In this document: positions 22,600-36,473 of the stretch, in pieces
Position numbering within the stretch: the first letter of the stretch is position 1
How the letters are laid out: each line of letters opens with the position of its first letter
Origin: Escherichia phage vB_EcoM_E9.1
DNA: 64,000 nucleotides
Sequence record: PP886230
Reading direction: 5' to 3' (one strand)
Notes under the pieces: model-generated
Seen by the model: only the letters and a program-made list of their open reading frames with translations
Database searches by the model: none
Told to the model about the DNA's origin: nothing
Position numbers and translations under genes: made by a program

Positions 22600-22791
22600 A
22601 TGTTGATTTATCAAAGTGATAATATTCGTGTTATGCAGCATCCCTACTTACAAATCTTTGATGTGCAGCAGTATATGGAAGGTGATGACCCAAGAACCTA
22701 TGGTCGTAAGTATGATTACTTCACTGTAAAGCAGTGTAAAAATATTAACGAAGTACGACAATTAGTTCAAGAACTTCAAAACAAAGGTTGA
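22600..22791 (+). CDS. hypothetical protein
   Basis: ORF ~63 aa; ATG 22600 after AAGGA; TGA stop lies inside the TTGACT of the downstream module. Confidence 0.5.
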   Translation: MLIYQSDNIRVMQHPYLQIFDVQQYMEGDDPRTYGRKYDYFTVKQCKNINEVRQLVQELQNKG

Positions 22792-29661: not shown

Positions 29662-30000
29662 ATGGAACAATATTTTGAATTAATAAACAAAGTATCATTT
29701 TATGTAGTATCTTTGGTTTGGGTGTATTATATGTTTTGCTACATTATTGCATTCTTCCGATACACTACTTTATATGAACGTATCTATTATGATGCCCCAA
29801 TTTCATTCTTGATGTTTTGTGCATGTACGTGGGGAATATTAGAAGTACTGATATGTGGGTATAGTACTGATGAATTAAATCTGGTATCGGTCTTGACTGG
29901 GTTTTCATTTGTTGTTATGATAGCTGCCGTTCCAGTATGGTTGTTCTTTGGACTAGTTCATCGCATTGATATATGGCGTTCTAATATCCCTGAAAAGTAA
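29662..30000 (+). CDS. family-B small multi-pass membrane protein
   Basis: ORF 112 aa; 3-4 hydrophobic helices; basic motif FFRYTTLYERIYYD after helix 1; tail RSNIPEK. Confidence 0.65.
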   Translation: MEQYFELINKVSFYVVSLVWVYYMFCYIIAFFRYTTLYERIYYDAPISFLMFCACTWGILEVLICGYSTDELNLVSVLTGFSFVVMIAAVPVWLFFGLVHRIDIWRSNIPEK

Positions 30001-30009
30001 GGATTGGTA

Positions 30010-30351
30010 ATGATTTATTACACTAACATGTTTGCCTATGCTGTTGCTTGCATTTACATTGTGTACTTCTTATTCGGTGGAGTACTGTGCTTCTTTAAGT
30101 ACAAAACGTTGTTCAACCGAATGTACCCAAATCATCCAATTGTGGTTGTACTTTTGATTCTTTCAGTTTCTCAAATAATAGTTGAAACTACAATGGGTAT
30201 CAGTAGTGTACATTATAGTTTTGGTACTATAGTAATTATTACTATGCTTATTGCATACATTTTAGTACTTGGATATGGTATCTTTGGTAATATTGGTATG
30301 AAAATGTATCATCGAATTAAAACATTACGTGATAATCTACCGGAGCGTTGA
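30010..30351 (+). CDS. family-B small multi-pass membrane protein
   Basis: ORF ~113 aa (ATG 30010; track used TTG 30004); FFKYKTLFNRMYPN; tail RDNLPER. Confidence 0.65.
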   Translation: MIYYTNMFAYAVACIYIVYFLFGGVLCFFKYKTLFNRMYPNHPIVVVLLILSVSQIIVETTMGISSVHYSFGTIVIITMLIAYILVLGYGIFGNIGMKMYHRIKTLRDNLPER

Positions 30352-30352
30352 T

Positions 30353-30697
30353 ATGTATAATTTGAACCTAATCTCATATATTATAACAACACTGTTTACA
30401 TTCTATGCCTTTGTTGGTATAATCCTACTGTACTTTAAATTTTATAAAGTGTTTAACCGTTTCTATCCTTCAATGGAGAATGAGTTTTTCTTTGTGTTGT
30501 ACGTAGGTTACACATTAATGGCTACATGTTTCACTGTAGCCGATGGTGTCATCGGCATTAAAACTGATTCCCCAAATGGTAGTACGCTGGTTGCATTTAT
30601 TCTTACTGGATTCCTTGCAACTTATATTGCCTTCATTACAACATGGTCAGTGGTTGAATTTCTCTTGCGACTACGAAAGAATATGCCGAATCGATAG
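30353..30697 (+). CDS. family-B small multi-pass membrane protein
   Basis: ORF ~114 aa from ATG 30353 (TGATATG junction); YFKFYKVFNRFYPS; tail RKNMPNR. Confidence 0.65.
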   Translation: MYNLNLISYIITTLFTFYAFVGIILLYFKFYKVFNRFYPSMENEFFFVLYVGYTLMATCFTVADGVIGIKTDSPNGSTLVAFILTGFLATYIAFITTWSVVEFLLRLRKNMPNR

Positions 30698-30706
30698 GAG
30701 ACATAT

Positions 30707-30961
30707 ATGTTTGCGTTGCGTAATAAAAACACTAAAGAATTATTATGTATTGATACCGTATGGGATTGTGCGGGGTCAACTACAGTTCTTGAAGAAGGAA
30801 CTGGATATTGCGTGTTTGTTGTACATGATAGGAATGAACTCGAATTATTACTTGCTGAGTTCAATGCTGGTGGTAATCCTAACAGTACTGAATACCCTGA
30901 GATTATCAATCCAGCACCACCAGGCTCTTATGAAATTCTACAACTGTGGGAGTTGAAGTAA
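30707..30961 (+). CDS. hypothetical protein
   Basis: ORF 84 aa. Confidence 0.55.
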   Translation: MFALRNKNTKELLCIDTVWDCAGSTTVLEEGTGYCVFVVHDRNELELLLAEFNAGGNPNSTEYPEIINPAPPGSYEILQLWELK

Positions 30962-31341
30962 TGCGTCAAATGCACAAAGTAACCGAGCTAAACAAGCGTC
31001 TGGTTAAACAATCAATGTTCGAGGATAAAGAGTCTTATTATAACTTTAAACGTGCTGTAGAGGCTGCTATCCACATTCAGAAGCTTAAAGAACGTGGTTG
31101 TATTATTCTGGAAAATGGGTCGGAAGTTGTAACGGATGACTTTAGTGTAGCGTTTGATGTTTCACCTGACGGGACGCTATCAATGCCCCGCTTAGGAACT
31201 GGAAACATGACTGTTTGGGTTGGCTTCACTATGGGGAATGTACCTGGTACTGTGTACGTAGATGATGCGGAATTGAAAGACAGTTTCAAAAACTTATCTT
31301 ATCTTGAACCACAATACGCACATGAAATGAATTTATTTTGA
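30961..31341 (+). CDS. hypothetical protein
   Basis: ORF ~126 aa; TAATG stop-start overlap. Confidence 0.55.
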   Translation: MRQMHKVTELNKRLVKQSMFEDKESYYNFKRAVEAAIHIQKLKERGCIILENGSEVVTDDFSVAFDVSPDGTLSMPRLGTGNMTVWVGFTMGNVPGTVYVDDAELKDSFKNLSYLEPQYAHEMNLF

Positions 31342-32807: not shown

Positions 32808-32900
32808 ATGGATTAAACAATGAAGAAGTGTATGATTCTTTGTTCTAATCACCATCGCATGGTACATTCTGGTAGACTATGTTTGATTGAAAGAAAAAAA

Positions 32901-32933
32901 GGGTTGACTTCAGTCGGCCCTTTTTGCTATAAT
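32901..32933 (+). promoter_or_regulatory. fused terminator-promoter module
   Basis: Hairpin GGGTTGAC-TTCA-GTCGGCCC (two G-U pairs) plus T5, TTGACT -35, 18-nt spacer, TATAAT; conserved leader CATTTCATCGAAACGAGAGG before the ATG. Confidence 0.65.
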
Positions 32934-32961
32934 CATTTCATCGAAACGAGAGGATGAATAC

Positions 32962-33477
32962 ATGACACGCATTAACTTAGTACACGTTAAAGAACTTGCT
33001 GACCAACATCTGATGGCTGAATATCGTGAACTCCCACGTGTATTTGGTGCTGTACAAAAACACGTTCAAGCACGTAAGCGTGTACGTGATTTCAAAATTA
33101 ACAGTACTTATCTGTTAGGTTCAGGTCATGTAACATTTTTCTACGACAAGTTACTGTACTTACAGAAGCGTCATATTGATATTGTCAACGAATGTCTGCG
33201 TCGTGGTATGAAGATTCAAAACACTGAAGTAAACGACATTAGCGGCTTCCCTGCTGAGTTTTGTAATGACTATGTACCATCGGAGTCAGAGATTAAAATG
33301 TCTCGTGATCGTTTGATTGAGAAGCTCCAGATGAAGCCTACGTGGTATAAGTTTACTGATGTTGAATGTCCACAGTACGTTAAAGATATGCAGAACGTAA
33401 GTAGTAAGAACGAATCTAGTACTGATATGTTCGACGAAATTGAAGAACAAATCAAAGATGAAATGAATAATTATTAA
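32962..33477 (+). CDS. denV: pyrimidine-dimer DNA glycosylase / AP lyase (T4 endonuclease V family)
   Basis: ORF 171 aa; N-terminal ~135 aa nearly collinear with T4 endonuclease V as recalled ([50 protein letters not shown]); carries a ~35-aa acidic C-terminal extension. Confidence 0.85.
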
Positions 33478-33515
33478 AGGAAAGGATTGACTTCGGTTAC
33501 ACAAAGGAACATAAC

Positions 33516-33710
33516 ATGTTATTAGTATATTCAAAGCGTTTCTGGATTTCTTTTATTGTACTATCGCTAATCGGCTTCGGTTTGAGTATACTCTTTTCGT
33601 GGGATGAATTGGGTACATGGTATTATGAAGTACCGTGGTACATGAAGATAGCTCCTTGTTATGCGGCATTGTTCGTGTCATTCCTTATTGTTGTCTTCAG
33701 CGAGGATTAG
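33516..33710 (+). CDS. small membrane protein
   Basis: ORF 64 aa; two hydrophobic helices. Confidence 0.5.
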   Translation: MLLVYSKRFWISFIVLSLIGFGLSILFSWDELGTWYYEVPWYMKIAPCYAALFVSFLIVVFSED

Positions 33711-33761
33711 TTGATGTAGTATGTGCTACACCAAAGTATTTGGATATTTGAGATATAAACA

Positions 33762-33790
33762 TTGACACCTGTTCTATCTTTCTGTATTAT
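33762..33790 (+). promoter_or_regulatory. sigma70-type promoter
   Basis: TTGACA, 17-nt spacer, TG-extended TATTAT. Confidence 0.55.
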
Positions 33791-33816
33791 GTACATCACC
33801 AAATGAGGAATACAAC

Positions 33817-34176
33817 ATGGCATCTTTAAGTGAAATCGCGGAATACAACCCACTAACAATCTCAACAATTCAACGTACAAAAACTTTTTATTTCCGTCCT
33901 GCTGATGGATGGAAACGTGGAATGAATGGTGACTATCGAGTACTGGAAGATTCGCTCATCGAGCGTATCAACTCTGAACTACAGAAGTATGAAGGTGTTA
34001 AAGTTGTGCGTTCAACTTCTCGTTATTTTGAGTACTACATTGAGTCTTCAACTGTAAATGAAAACTCATCATTCTCGGTGGACAACACTGATATTCTTCG
34101 TAATGCAGTTGGTCTGTTATGCAACATTGCAGAAGAAATGGGCTTAACTATTACTACTATGAGTGAATTAGAATAA
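33817..34176 (+). CDS. hypothetical protein
   Basis: ORF 119 aa. Confidence 0.6.
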   Translation: MASLSEIAEYNPLTISTIQRTKTFYFRPADGWKRGMNGDYRVLEDSLIERINSELQKYEGVKVVRSTSRYFEYYIESSTVNENSSFSVDNTDILRNAVGLLCNIAEEMGLTITTMSELE

Positions 34177-34182
34177 CATAAA

Positions 34183-34215
34183 GGGTTGACTTCGGTCAGC
34201 CCTTTTTGCTATAAT
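34183..34215 (+). promoter_or_regulatory. fused terminator-promoter module
   Basis: Hairpin GGGTTGAC-TTCG-GTCAGCCC plus T5, TTGACT -35, 18-nt spacer, TATAAT; same conserved leader ATCGAAACGAGAGG as at 32940. Confidence 0.7.
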
Positions 34216-34241: not shown

Positions 34242-34481
34242 ATGAAACTATCTTTTATACGTTTAGCAGAATTCTTCGGTACTGATATTATTACTTTACA
34301 ACAAATTGCAGACAATACTTCATTAAGTACACAAGAAGTACTTGACTTAGATGTAATTCAGTGCGATAATACTTCCATTGATTTCAAAGAAGGTCTTGTC
34401 GAAAAAGATAAGATTCAAGCTAAGATTAATGGTGCTGGACGGGTTCAGTACTGGAAAGGAGTTTTAAGTAATGCCAGCTAA
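34242..34481 (+). CDS. hypothetical protein
   Basis: ORF 79 aa. Confidence 0.55.
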   Translation: MKLSFIRLAEFFGTDIITLQQIADNTSLSTQEVLDLDVIQCDNTSIDFKEGLVEKDKIQAKINGAGRVQYWKGVLSNAS

Positions 34482-35820
34482 ATTAACCCCTAAACAAGCA
34501 AAAGAAAAATTCAACAATAAAGTATTAGAACATAACGTTCCAATTGAAGCTGATTATAGTAAGTATGAAAATGCCAAATTAAAAAACATCCAAGTAGTTT
34601 GCAATGATGTATTAAAACACAAATCAGGCATATCACAAGTATATCTTATGGATCACGCAAACCTCACACACCCATCTAAAAAATTTGGTTGTCCTGAATG
34701 TGAAGACTGGTATAATGGTCATGCTAAAAGTTTAGATATTTTAATTGTTAGGGAAAGAATTAATTCTTGGATTAGTACTTATGGTGGCATAATTGATACA
34801 GTTAGTGGTGAAGTTGAAGTTTATAAAAATAATTCAACAAAAATACCATATATTTGTAAAAATGGAACTAAAAAAACGCTTACTATTTCTACACTGGGTG
34901 ATGAAATCGGTTGTAATTGTTCTAAATGTAAATCTGAATTAATATCAGAAATCGAAGATAACAATGAATATACATCCATGACTACTGATGATGATTGTGT
35001 TACAATTTCCCATTTTATATTTGGGGATGATGTTGCATTCTCGTGGATTTCACCATTGGAAATGAAAAAACATGGTTACGGTCTTGCCGAAAAAATGAAA
35101 GAAAAAGCATTGTCGGTTGGTAAAAATATTATTGGATATGCAATATCATCTCTTAGTGAATGGAAAAATGAAAAAACTCCTGTAATAACGGAACACGAAG
35201 GAGTATTATATCGTATTTCCAGAGCATCATATTTGATCAATAATAATATAGTACATAGACCACATTATACAAAAAATAATTTTTTATATTATTTTTACAA
35301 ATGTTCACCTAACAATCAACTTATTACACCAATCCTAATACCTGATGATGTTGGTACAAAAAAGAAAATTAAAGTATGTTATAAATCATGTGGGTGTGAA
35401 TACGATATATCTGTGGACGTTATAATGAACAGAAATTTAAAAACTTGTGGAAACTGTAAAAATATAGATACTAAAACATTTATAGAAAAGTGCTTGGAGT
35501 TCAAATCAAGTGGAGAATATATCTATAATAGAGTAAACTATATAAATCAAAGTACACCTGTAACTATAGTTCATAAAATTTACGGAGAATTCAAAAGTAC
35601 ACCACAAAATCACTTAACACATTTAAAAAACAGTTTGAAATATGATACAGCTAACTTTAAAATAAAAAATCTAACTCAATTTAAAATTAAAGCAAATGAA
35701 GTTCATAATAACTTATATAATTATGATAAAGTTGATTATGTAAATTCTTCAACGAATTTAAAATTAAAGCAAATGAAGTTCATAATAACTTATATAATTA
35801 TGATAAAGTTGATTATGTAA
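34471..35820 (+). CDS. cysteine-rich repeat protein, C-terminus disrupted by a 77-bp tandem duplication
   Basis: ORF 449 aa with CxxC pairs (CPECEDW, CNCSKCK, CGNCKN) and repeated ~40-aa units (Y..V.Y.N..T...I.H..YG.F...P..HL); the last 21 codons are read out of frame through the second DNA repeat copy. Confidence 0.5.
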   Translation: MPAKLTPKQAKEKFNNKVLEHNVPIEADYSKYENAKLKNIQVVCNDVLKHKSGISQVYLMDHANLTHPSKKFGCPECEDWYNGHAKSLDILIVRERINSWISTYGGIIDTVSGEVEVYKNNSTKIPYICKNGTKKTLTISTLGDEIGCNCSKCKSELISEIEDNNEYTSMTTDDDCVTISHFIFGDDVAFSWISPLEMKKHGYGLAEKMKEKALSVGKNIIGYAISSLSEWKNEKTPVITEHEGVLYRISRASYLINNNIVHRPHYTKNNFLYYFYKCSPNNQLITPILIPDDVGTKKKIKVCYKSCGCEYDISVDVIMNRNLKTCGNCKNIDTKTFIEKCLEFKSSGEYIYNRVNYINQSTPVTIVHKIYGEFKSTPQNHLTHLKNSLKYDTANFKIKNLTQFKIKANEVHNNLYNYDKVDYVNSSTNLKLKQMKFIITYIIMIKLIM

Positions 35821-36068
35821 ATTCTTCAACGAAAGTATTAATAACTCATCCAGTGTATGGAGACTTTTGGCAAACTCCAAATGGGCATTTGGCAGGTAAA
35901 GGACACCCGAAAGTCAAAGGTGGTGTTCCTTATACATGTGATGAATTTAAAATTAAAGCAAATGAAGTTCATAATAACTTATATAATTATGATAAAGTTG
36001 ATTATGTAAATTCTTCAACGAAAGTATTAATAACTCATCCAGTGTATGGAGACTTTTGGCAAACTCCA
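35680..36068 (+). repeat. tandem DNA duplication inside the repeat-protein locus
   Basis: 77-bp unit TTTAAAATTAAAGCAAATGAAGTTCATAATAACTTATATAATTATGATAAAGTTGATTATGTAAATTCTTCAACGAA at 35680-35756, repeated and extended at 35757-35879 and again at 35946-36068; copies identical by eye. Confidence 0.8.
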
Positions 36069-36434
36069 GCAAGTCACCTTTGTGGGTCTGGTCATCCACT
36101 TGCGGCTGGTCATTCTCAGCAATATGCATATATTCATAATATTTTGGATGGTGATTTATCTGTAGCATTGAAATATGGTATTGAAAAGCAGAAAGGTAAG
36201 AGGGTTATGCAGCAAAATAAAAAATCATTATTTAAAATTGAATCGTTACATACGTATTTTTTCACATCTGTGTTTGAGTGTAAGGAAGCTGAAAAAGAAT
36301 GTAAAAAACTATTTGGTAAAGGCGTTTTAACTAAACAAGAAATGCCAGATGGTTATACTGAAACTACTACACCAAACAACATAGATAAAATTATTGCAAT
36401 CTATGAAAAATGGGGTGGGGTGAAAAAAAACTAA
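35853..36434 (+). CDS. repeat protein (continuation or second copy of the 34471 locus)
   Basis: ORF 193 aa containing two copies of FKIKANEVHNNLYNYDKVDYVNSSTKVLITHPVYGDFWQTP.HL.G.GHP. Confidence 0.5.
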   Translation: MYGDFWQTPNGHLAGKGHPKVKGGVPYTCDEFKIKANEVHNNLYNYDKVDYVNSSTKVLITHPVYGDFWQTPASHLCGSGHPLAAGHSQQYAYIHNILDGDLSVALKYGIEKQKGKRVMQQNKKSLFKIESLHTYFFTSVFECKEAEKECKKLFGKGVLTKQEMPDGYTETTTPNNIDKIIAIYEKWGGVKKN

Positions 36435-36440
36435 ACAAAA

Positions 36441-36473
36441 GGGTTGACTTCGGTCAGCCCTTTTTGCTATAAT
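36441..36473 (+). promoter_or_regulatory. fused terminator-promoter module
   Basis: Hairpin GGGTTGAC-TTCG-GTCAGCCC plus T5, TTGACT -35, 18-nt spacer, TATAAT. Confidence 0.7.

Follow-up and report, generated by a model that had tools for sequence, protein, structure and literature searches.

A T4 endonuclease V ortholog with a modular, recombining acidic C-terminal tail in an Asteriusvirus jumbo coliphage

The analysis of the window (the whole stretch of 64,000 nucleotides from Escherichia phage vB_EcoM_E9.1, sequence record PP886230) focused on denV and on the C-terminal extension of its product. Taken jointly, the observations are best explained by an Asteriusvirus DenV enzyme, a cassette promoter upstream of its gene and a modular tail that recombines among related phages, a reading to which we assign a probability of roughly 80%. 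The tail is a real and translated module appended to the enzyme, in which a variable polar linker is followed by a conserved acidic amphipathic helix of 14-18 residues that ends in Tyr.

The gene and its putative ribosome binding site are located as follows.

32962..33477, + strand: denV, T4 endonuclease V ortholog, with an ATG start and 171 codons plus stop
32948..32953, + strand: Shine-Dalgarno-like GAGAGG, 8 nt 5' of the denV ATG, read from the sequence

The open reading frame had been placed exactly by the sequence-only reading, which also gave its strand, its length of 171 aa and its C-terminal sequence correctly. Minus-strand ORFs overlapping denV (61 and 82 aa) were without support and were treated as noise. 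The 4.5 kb surrounding denV present 98.6-98.7% identity to Escherichia phages phAPEC6 and slurp01, and match about 59 jumbo-phage records, mostly from Asteriusvirus; the source is an Asteriusvirus jumbo coliphage of the 121Q/PBECO4/phAPEC6 type. Tail included, the protein encoded in the window is 100% identical over 171 aa to that of CRJP21, and 99.4% identical over the same length to gp217 of 121Q (AIT14107.1). The annotation "endonuclease V" is carried in GenBank by 121Q gp217, by the phAPEC6 and RaK2 proteins and in many Asteriusvirus genomes, and a T4 endonuclease V homolog in RaK2-like jumbo phages is already on record (PMC7824862, PMC5259590). Given these annotations and reports of the same protein, the enzyme is not new: it is a known, annotated and ordinary DenV ortholog, with the acidic tail as its sole unusual feature.

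Searches with phmmer against all PDB chains returned matches only to T4 endonuclease V entries (2END, the mutants 1ENI/J/K and the complexes 1VAS and 2FCC), with 2END_A matching at an E-value of 1.8e-54 (187 bits). The protein also matched the Pfam family PF03013 (Pyr_excise) with 55.8 bits (gathering score 23; E-value 5.9e-15), and PHROG 1183 ("endonuclease V N-glycosylase UV repair enzyme") with an E-value of 1.2e-58 over 137 of 139 profile positions. No NCBIfam model matched the window DenV, an uninformative result given that this library targets cellular genomes, and a Pfam DUF6376 hit over residues 104-167 was discarded for falling below threshold (17.3 bits versus a cut-off of 27.3).

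The pairwise alignment with T4 DenV that had been proposed as a check was performed, and delimited the catalytic core of the protein.

32962..33354, + strand: catalytic core, residues 1-131, aligned without gaps to residues 1-131 of T4 endonuclease V

In this alignment 85 of the 131 positions are identical (65%) and the catalytic residues are kept. The sequence-only reading had stated that the first ~135 residues track T4 DenV closely; the closeness is borne out, but the gap-free match stops earlier, at residue 131. Its description of the N-terminal Thr2 region and of the catalytic-core motifs also agrees with the alignment, where the MTRINL start, T2 and E23 are all present. In the T4 enzyme, functional importance attaches to Thr2 (which provides the nucleophilic alpha-amine), Glu23, Arg3, Arg22, Arg26, Arg117 and Lys121, together with Gln15, His16, Tyr21 and Trp128-Tyr129-Lys130, following the work of Lloyd and Morikawa. 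Core residues identical between both proteins comprise T2, R3, Q15, H16, Y21, R22, E23, R26, R117, K121, W128, Y129 and K130, and the only changes among the functional residues checked, R125K and Y131F, are conservative. Furthermore, an alignment of 72 homologs shows no variation at T2, R3, E23, R26 or R117.

An AlphaFold model of the window DenV, built from this 72-homolog alignment, presented a mean pLDDT of 90, with values of 85-98 across residues 1-131 and helices at residues 14-36, 64-80 and 108-124 with pLDDT above 90. The predicted fold is an all-alpha single domain, with three long helices and a C-terminal loop near the N-terminus. Foldseek aligned the model with 2END at an E-value of 3e-16, with a target-normalized TM-score of 0.94 and an rmsd of 1.2 A over 133 columns, and apart from T4 endonuclease V no fold in the PDB came near the model in this search. 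On the basis of sequence and model, the denV product is predicted with high confidence to be an active pyrimidine-dimer DNA glycosylase/AP lyase. Homology and residue conservation are observed, and by homology we infer that the catalytic chemistry is that of the T4 enzyme. The alpha-amino group of Thr2, after removal of Met, would attack C1' of the 5' pyrimidine in the cyclobutane dimer; with the assistance of Glu23, a Schiff base would form and beta-elimination would nick the strand. The kinked DNA would be held by R3, R22, R26, R117, K121 and the WYKF segment.

The sequence-only reading had also pointed out a tail of ~35 residues, rich in D/E/S and absent from T4 DenV. The presence of such a tail was confirmed, but its size and layout had to be revised, since the extra residues number 33 and fall into two separate parts: a 7-aa insertion (TDVECPQ) after WYKF and 26-27 residues past the usual end of the protein. 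The alignments used for the extension included T4, phAPEC6, 121Q, RaK2, XbC2 and 40 metagenomic relatives. The segment YVKDMQN of the window protein aligns with the T4 C-terminus, YGKAIYA, and an insertion after WYK[FY] (TDVExP-) followed by a cap (Y[YV]xxM..) is common to all the DenV proteins of RaK2-like jumbo phages. The C-terminal region of the window protein can hence be divided into the following elements.

33355..33393, + strand: C-terminal cap, residues 132-144, defined by the alignments; tail-less homologs stop here
33394..33432, + strand: polar S/T/N-rich linker, residues 145-157, varying in length and sequence among homologs
33433..33474, + strand: acidic amphipathic tip, residues 158-171, conserved in the alignments

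The extension proper (residues 145-171) spans 27 aa, with 8 D/E and 2 K residues and a net charge of -6, and shifts the computed net charge of the protein (K+R minus D+E) from +4 (pI 9.0) to -2 (pI 6.2). The tip follows the consensus [DE]x[IV]E[EQR]QIK[DEN]EMN[NL][YE]. The hydrophobic moment of the last 18 residues is 0.48, a value reached by 5 of 2000 shuffles, and the tips of XbC2 and P0009 are similar in this respect. In the AlphaFold model of the window protein, residues 138-169 form a single 32-residue helix with pLDDT values of about 70-81, the linker lying at ~70. In the P0009 model, two helices (138-156 and a terminal one at 164-177, the latter of low confidence, 50-58) are separated by a linker at 156-163 whose pLDDT falls below 50. 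The tip is helical in these two independent predicted models. In both sequence and models, the tail bears the signature of a short, conditionally folding, amphipathic acidic helix on a flexible linker, under some degree of protein-level constraint.

In terms of its distribution, the tail with its conserved tip is a real, if small, variant specific to a lineage. A tblastn search of 50,697 phage records with the 20-aa tail, at E-values up to 10, detected it in 18 of them and returned only the 18 denV 3' ends. The tip is kept in 121Q-type coliphages, XbC2, P0003/4, P0008 and P0009, and in-frame length variants of 158, 167, 171, 176 and 179 aa were identified, every one of which retains it. Those differing in length from the window protein are listed below.

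ph0011, 167 aa: same motif as in the window, with an in-frame 4-residue deletion in the linker
P0003 and P0004, 158 aa: same motif as in the window, with in-frame loss of nearly the whole linker
P0008, 176 aa: terminal motif EDIEQQIKDEMNLE
Xanthomonas phage XbC2 and P0009, 179 aa: terminal motif E[DN][VI]ERQIKEEMNNY

Between the window protein and those of XbC2, P0009 and P0008, the core is 76-79% identical and the tip preserves 9-10 of its 14 residues, while the linker cannot be aligned. Across homologs, the linker ranges from 0 to about 21 residues in length and shows no conserved sequence. The tail of P0025 is acidic and unrelated in sequence. Tail-less relatives (144-149 aa) were found in phAPEC6, slurp01 and PBECO4 (144 aa in all three), RaK2 (147 aa), GAP32 (146 aa), A4 and CBB, and the tail-less sister phages are 94-95% identical to the window over DenV residues 1-143. 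Synonymous changes between the window and XbC2 affect 1 of 9 conserved codons in the tip and 43 of 100 in the core, counts that are too small for a firm reading; the conservation of the tip could partly arise at the DNA level (e.g. from AT-rich sequence 5' of the next promoter) or from recent transfer.

Neither the window, in a six-frame regular expression search, nor the 50,697 phage records yielded another protein bearing this tip, and nothing therefore points to a shared docking motif. The six-frame search of the window did return a C-terminus ending in ...HEMNLF on the ORF at 30946..31341, which was treated as a coincidence; distant homologs of this ORF align only to residue 117-118, and its RaK2 homolog ends in ...QKYSFQ. 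A literature search for tailed pyrimidine-dimer glycosylases found nothing relevant. The existence of near-identical sister phages without the tail, and the presence of the tip on no other protein found, speak against any essential role for the tail.

The alleles of the window, phAPEC6 and 121Q were compared position by position. The window denV shows no differences from the tail-less allele of phAPEC6 between -67 and +311, and none from the tailed allele of 121Q between +320 and the stop codon (nt 320-516). The five differences with respect to 121Q lie in the 5' part of denV and are synonymous or near-synonymous, and differences with respect to phAPEC6 become dense after +405. The comparison delimits a short breakpoint interval.

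33273..33281, + strand: recombination breakpoint interval, gene nt 312-320, from the position-by-position comparison

Since the window denV follows the phAPEC6 allele over its 5' two-thirds and that of 121Q over the remainder, it is an intragenic recombinant, with a phAPEC6-like 5' part and a 121Q-like 3' part. The tail is carried by an exchangeable 3' gene segment that recombines between co-circulating phages.

A terminator-promoter module had been proposed to precede denV, and the stable hairpin and near-consensus promoter identified there establish it as a real sequence feature. This cassette is intergenic, located between an upstream HNH-remnant ORF and denV, and contains the following elements.

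32896..32925, + strand: cassette hairpin (PeSL-like), 13 bp with a 4-nt loop, followed by a T run
32904..32933, + strand: predicted sigma-70-type promoter, matching 11/12 positions plus TG in a consensus scan

The core stem of the hairpin, GGGTTGAC/GTCGGCCC, is lengthened by A5/T5 pairs. RNA folding of positions 32896-32925 yielded -17.4 kcal/mol (z-score -4.26), with 2 of 200 shuffles performing as well. The upstream hairpin was absent from the list returned by the terminator scanner, probably because the stem, as extended by the program, absorbs the A5/T5 pairs so that no T tail remains; the presence of the hairpin was established by folding the sequence directly. The -35 element TTGACT (32904) lies inside the 5' arm of the hairpin, and is followed after an 18-nt spacer by a TG-extended -10 element, TATAAT, ending at 32933. 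Based on the promoter consensus and the stability of the hairpin, denV is probably transcribed early by the host sigma-70 RNA polymerase from the cassette promoter.

Near-identical copies of the cassette are present in the window at 22788, 26214, 34186 and 36444, with a shortened copy at 33486. The 5' leader ATCGAAACGAGAGG is common to denV and to the cassette copy at 34186, and the neighbors adjoining the cassettes in the window are ORFans of unknown function. The same cassette was identified 5' of denV in phAPEC6, 121Q, RaK2, XbC2 and two metagenomic contigs, and was not found 5' of denV in GAP32.

Downstream of denV, the window contains a shortened copy of the cassette and a small ORF.

33478..33515, + strand: shortened cassette copy (AAGGAAAGGATTGACTTCGGT...), directly 3' of the denV stop codon, supplying the ribosome binding site for the next ORF
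33516..33710, + strand: 64-aa hydrophobic ORF (121Q gp218 homolog), the next gene 3' of denV

The shortened copy lacks the 3' arm, the T run and the -10 element, and aligns to the intact cassette in fEgEco12 and ph0011. Folding revealed no stable hairpin 3' of denV in the window (-1.1 kcal/mol), and the 64-aa ORF is therefore probably co-transcribed with denV. Neither Pfam nor PHROG returned a family for this ORF. It was present in 13 phage records, all of them tail-bearing, and absent from five tail-bearing records; a tie between the tail and the 64-aa ORF was rejected on the grounds of these five tailed genomes. The ORF is optional cargo, separate from the enzyme. In fEgEco12 and ph0011, the stop codon of the tail directly adjoins an intact cassette, beyond which lies an AAA-ATPase gene. 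The post-denV cassette of fEgEco12 combines the 5' half found at positions 33478-33500 of the window with the 3' half of the window cassette at 36444, and in the window this 3' half at 36444 is accompanied by the same ATPase gene as in fEgEco12 and ph0011. Given that the fEgEco12 cassette joins these two window halves, about 3 kb of small ORFs are present or absent between cassette copies.

The existence of sister phages without the tail indicates that the tail is dispensable for catalysis. The possible interaction or regulatory tail suggested in the sequence-only reading fits the data, given the conserved tip on a variable linker, its amphipathic character and its patchy presence. The reading that we tentatively prefer, at somewhat less than even odds, is that the tail constitutes a tethered docking helix with a specific interaction role. 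Its target would be a repair or replication partner protein, or the basic DNA-binding face of the enzyme itself, and docking would tune either recruitment or non-specific DNA scanning. A bolder proposal, which we consider doubtful, is that the tip (QIKxEMNNY) couples the glycosylase to a specific partner, such as the phage SSB/replisome or a host enzyme that clears the 3' end blocked by AP lyase action, and that the module spreads among jumbo phages by recombination at cassette-bounded gene ends. Were this the case, the T4 endonuclease V family, whose members otherwise stand alone, would gain its first partner-recruited enzyme.

Recombination could also have generated the tail as a neutral by-product, if exchange at the 3' cassette moved the stop codon and brought foreign or non-coding sequence into translation, leaving the tail idle. 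The patchy occurrence of the tail among genomes sharing 94-99% core identity, the exchange of the denV 3' end by recombination next to a recombinogenic cassette and the low structure confidence of the tail in the P0009 model are all compatible with neutrality, as is the scarcity of synonymous changes in the tip, which could equally stem from DNA-level constraint or recent transfer. We nevertheless deem an idle tail improbable. The 14-aa tip has been kept even though the cores differ in 21-24% of their amino acids and the linker has diverged past alignment, the length of the linker has changed at least 4 times, in frame each time, and the amphipathic periodicity of the tip is strongly non-random. 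Even if the tail were neutral, the locus would still represent a clear case of cassette-mediated and intragenic mosaicism in jumbo phages.

Charge alone might also account for the tail, by analogy with HMGB1, if it acted as a purely electrostatic, intramolecular DNA mimic that folds on the basic face, weakening non-specific binding and altering one-dimensional scanning with no specific partner. The negative charge of the tail and the resulting reversal in the net charge of the protein are in line with such a role, as is its position adjoining the WYKF DNA-binding segment. In the T4 literature (Lloyd and colleagues), DNA scanning by the T4 enzyme is reported to be electrostatic in nature and to be important in vivo for survival after UV. 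A generic polyanion would not need the Q, I, K, M, N, N and Y residues that are also kept in the tip, however, and the acidic but unrelated tail of P0025 suggests that charge alone is free to vary. We thus regard this explanation as unlikely, and docking as favored over a generic polyanion, because these non-acidic residues are conserved on one face of the helix. It is harder still to envisage the C-terminal helix as a coiled coil mediating homodimerization, which could bring two catalytic domains to clustered dimers or to both strands. The single 32-residue helix predicted by AlphaFold for residues 138-169 of the window protein would lend itself to this arrangement, and so would its hydrophobic stripe (M155/F156, I159, I163, M167 and Y171), but the i+4 spacing of the stripe is mismatched to heptads, the helix is broken by the linker in the P0009 model, with pLDDT below 50, and the 158-aa variants lose half of it. 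Dimerization hence appears very improbable.

A tethered docking helix therefore remains our preferred, if tentative, reading of the tail. The occurrence of tailed and tail-less alleles in near-identical phages provides a natural pair for effects of charge or of a partner on lesion search. The gain in knowledge is incremental, given that the enzyme was already known and annotated.

T4 endonuclease V is a textbook enzyme that serves as a model for one-dimensional scanning of DNA and finds use in skin-repair formulations; to our knowledge, it has always been regarded as a minimal protein of 138 aa that works on its own. The window protein resembles this enzyme (DenV, T4-PDG; 2END, 1VAS, 2FCC; PF03013) in its MTRINL N-terminus, its all-alpha fold and its aromatic-basic C-terminal segment, which reads WYKF in the window and WYKY in T4. 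It differs from it in length (171 versus 138 aa) and net charge (-2 versus +5), as well as in the 7-aa insertion after WYKF and the 27-aa acidic extension. The genomes that encode them also differ, that of the window belonging to a jumbo phage of ~350 kb and that of T4 to the T4-like Tevenvirinae. Among closer relatives, 121Q and CRJP21 present the same neighbors as the window, with the cassette 5' and the 64-aa ORF 3' of denV. The phAPEC6/slurp01/PBECO4, RaK2 and GAP32 proteins come from the same jumbo-phage subfamily and share the TDVExP insertion and the Y[YV]xxM cap, but, unlike the window protein, stop at 144-147 and have neither linker nor acidic tip. The upstream cassette of the window is found in most tail-less relatives, GAP32 being without it.

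Acidic C-terminal tips on flexible linkers are a feature of single-stranded DNA-binding proteins, such as E. coli SSB (SSB-Ct), T7 gp2.5 and T4 gp32 (C-domain). The likeness of the DenV tail to these tips is one of analogy and not of homology, and encompasses a variable low-complexity linker, an acidic tip ending in an aromatic residue and a basic DNA-binding domain. There is zero sequence similarity between them, and the DenV tip is predicted to be a helical, amphipathic element, whereas SSB-type tips are extended peptides.

Finally, the cassettes in the window resemble the PeSL (promoter-early stem-loop) cassettes of T4-type phages (Arbiol et al. 2010, PMC2839356; Comeau et al. 2014, PMC4122927), one published subclass of which has the stem-loop overlapping the -35 box (PMC2839356). 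As in PeSLs, the window cassette combines a near-consensus sigma-70 promoter, a stable stem-loop and an AT-rich upstream tract; the cassettes are repeated between small early ORFs in a plastic region, and insertion/deletion junctions fall inside cassettes of the window type. From these sequence features we infer promoter and terminator activity, and early timing, for the window cassette. In contrast to PeSLs, which are found in Tevenvirinae, the window cassettes occur in RaK2-like jumbo phages, and their sequence, AAAGGGTTGACTTCGGTCAGCCCTTTTTGCTATAAT, is specific to this lineage.

The gene encoding DenV, the T4 endonuclease V homologue, is adjoined on its 5' side by a short ORF, and its surroundings contain several repeated or rearranged elements:

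32820..32957, + strand: ORF of 45 codons, HNH remnant by comparison with the intact fEgEco12 gene
33366-33850: region corresponding to the fusion in Salmonella phage SD-2_S15 P0005
22788, 26214, 32904, 34186 and 36444, + strand: cassette copies, repeated sequence of ~35 bp
33478-33515, + strand: truncated copy of the same cassette
35678-35833: tandem duplication of 77 bp (2.0 copies, 100% match), affecting ORFs 34471..35820 and 35853..36434
29662..30697, + strand: three tandem ORFs of 112-122 aa with similar hydrophobic profiles and ends
30946..31341, + strand: ORF whose C-terminus (...QYAHEMNLF) resembles the DenV tip (...DEMNNY)

Comparison with phage fEgEco12, in which the intact HNH homing endonuclease gene encodes 138 aa, indicates that the 45-codon ORF is the remnant of a free-standing enzyme of this type, which still begins with MKKC and, beyond an internal deletion, keeps the HNH portion of the C-terminus, MILCSNHHRMVHSGRLCLIERKKG; one additional A in an A-run carries its frame through the cassette hairpin. 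Homing-endonuclease activity beside denV could help to explain the mosaic denV allele, with its phAPEC6-like 5' part and 121Q-like 3' part. At the other end of the gene, P0005 of SD-2_S15 (242 aa) joins DenV residues 1-135 in frame to a homologue of the product of ORF 33817..34176, with the acidic tail, the hydrophobic 64-aa ORF and the next promoter all deleted. P0005 is either a genuine deletion-fusion or a product of misassembly, and it again marks the denV 3' end as a breakage hot-spot.

The 77-bp perfect duplication lies within a nuclease-like gene with PHROG matches to HNH/endonuclease, present here as two ORFs (449 aa and 193 aa) and in phAPEC6 as a single CDS of ~629 aa annotated as 'exonuclease ABC C subunit'. 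A length of 77 bp is not divisible by 3, so the extra copy would shift the reading frame, and this could account for the split; the duplication is either a recent inactivating event or an assembly artefact.

Upstream, the three tandem ORFs have similar multi-pass hydrophobic profiles and similar C-terminal ends (...SNIPEK, ...DNLPER and ...KNMPNR), and appear to be an array of paralogues encoding small membrane proteins. A tip shared between DenV and the 30946..31341 product was also considered, but the likeness is probably due to chance: alignments with distant homologues stop at residue 117-118, and the homologue in RaK2 has a different C-terminus (...QKYSFQ).

Insertion/deletion junctions between related genomes coincide with the cassette, whose repeat unit is AAAGGGTTGACTTCGGTCAGCCCTTTTTGCTATAAT and which is often followed 3' by a conserved leader, ATTT(C/T)ATCGAAACGAGAGG. 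The unit reads as a terminator-like hairpin and a sigma-70 promoter, with the -35 box within the stem. In this arrangement it resembles the promoter-early stem-loop (PeSL) cassettes of T4-type phages, and looks like their jumbo-phage counterpart.
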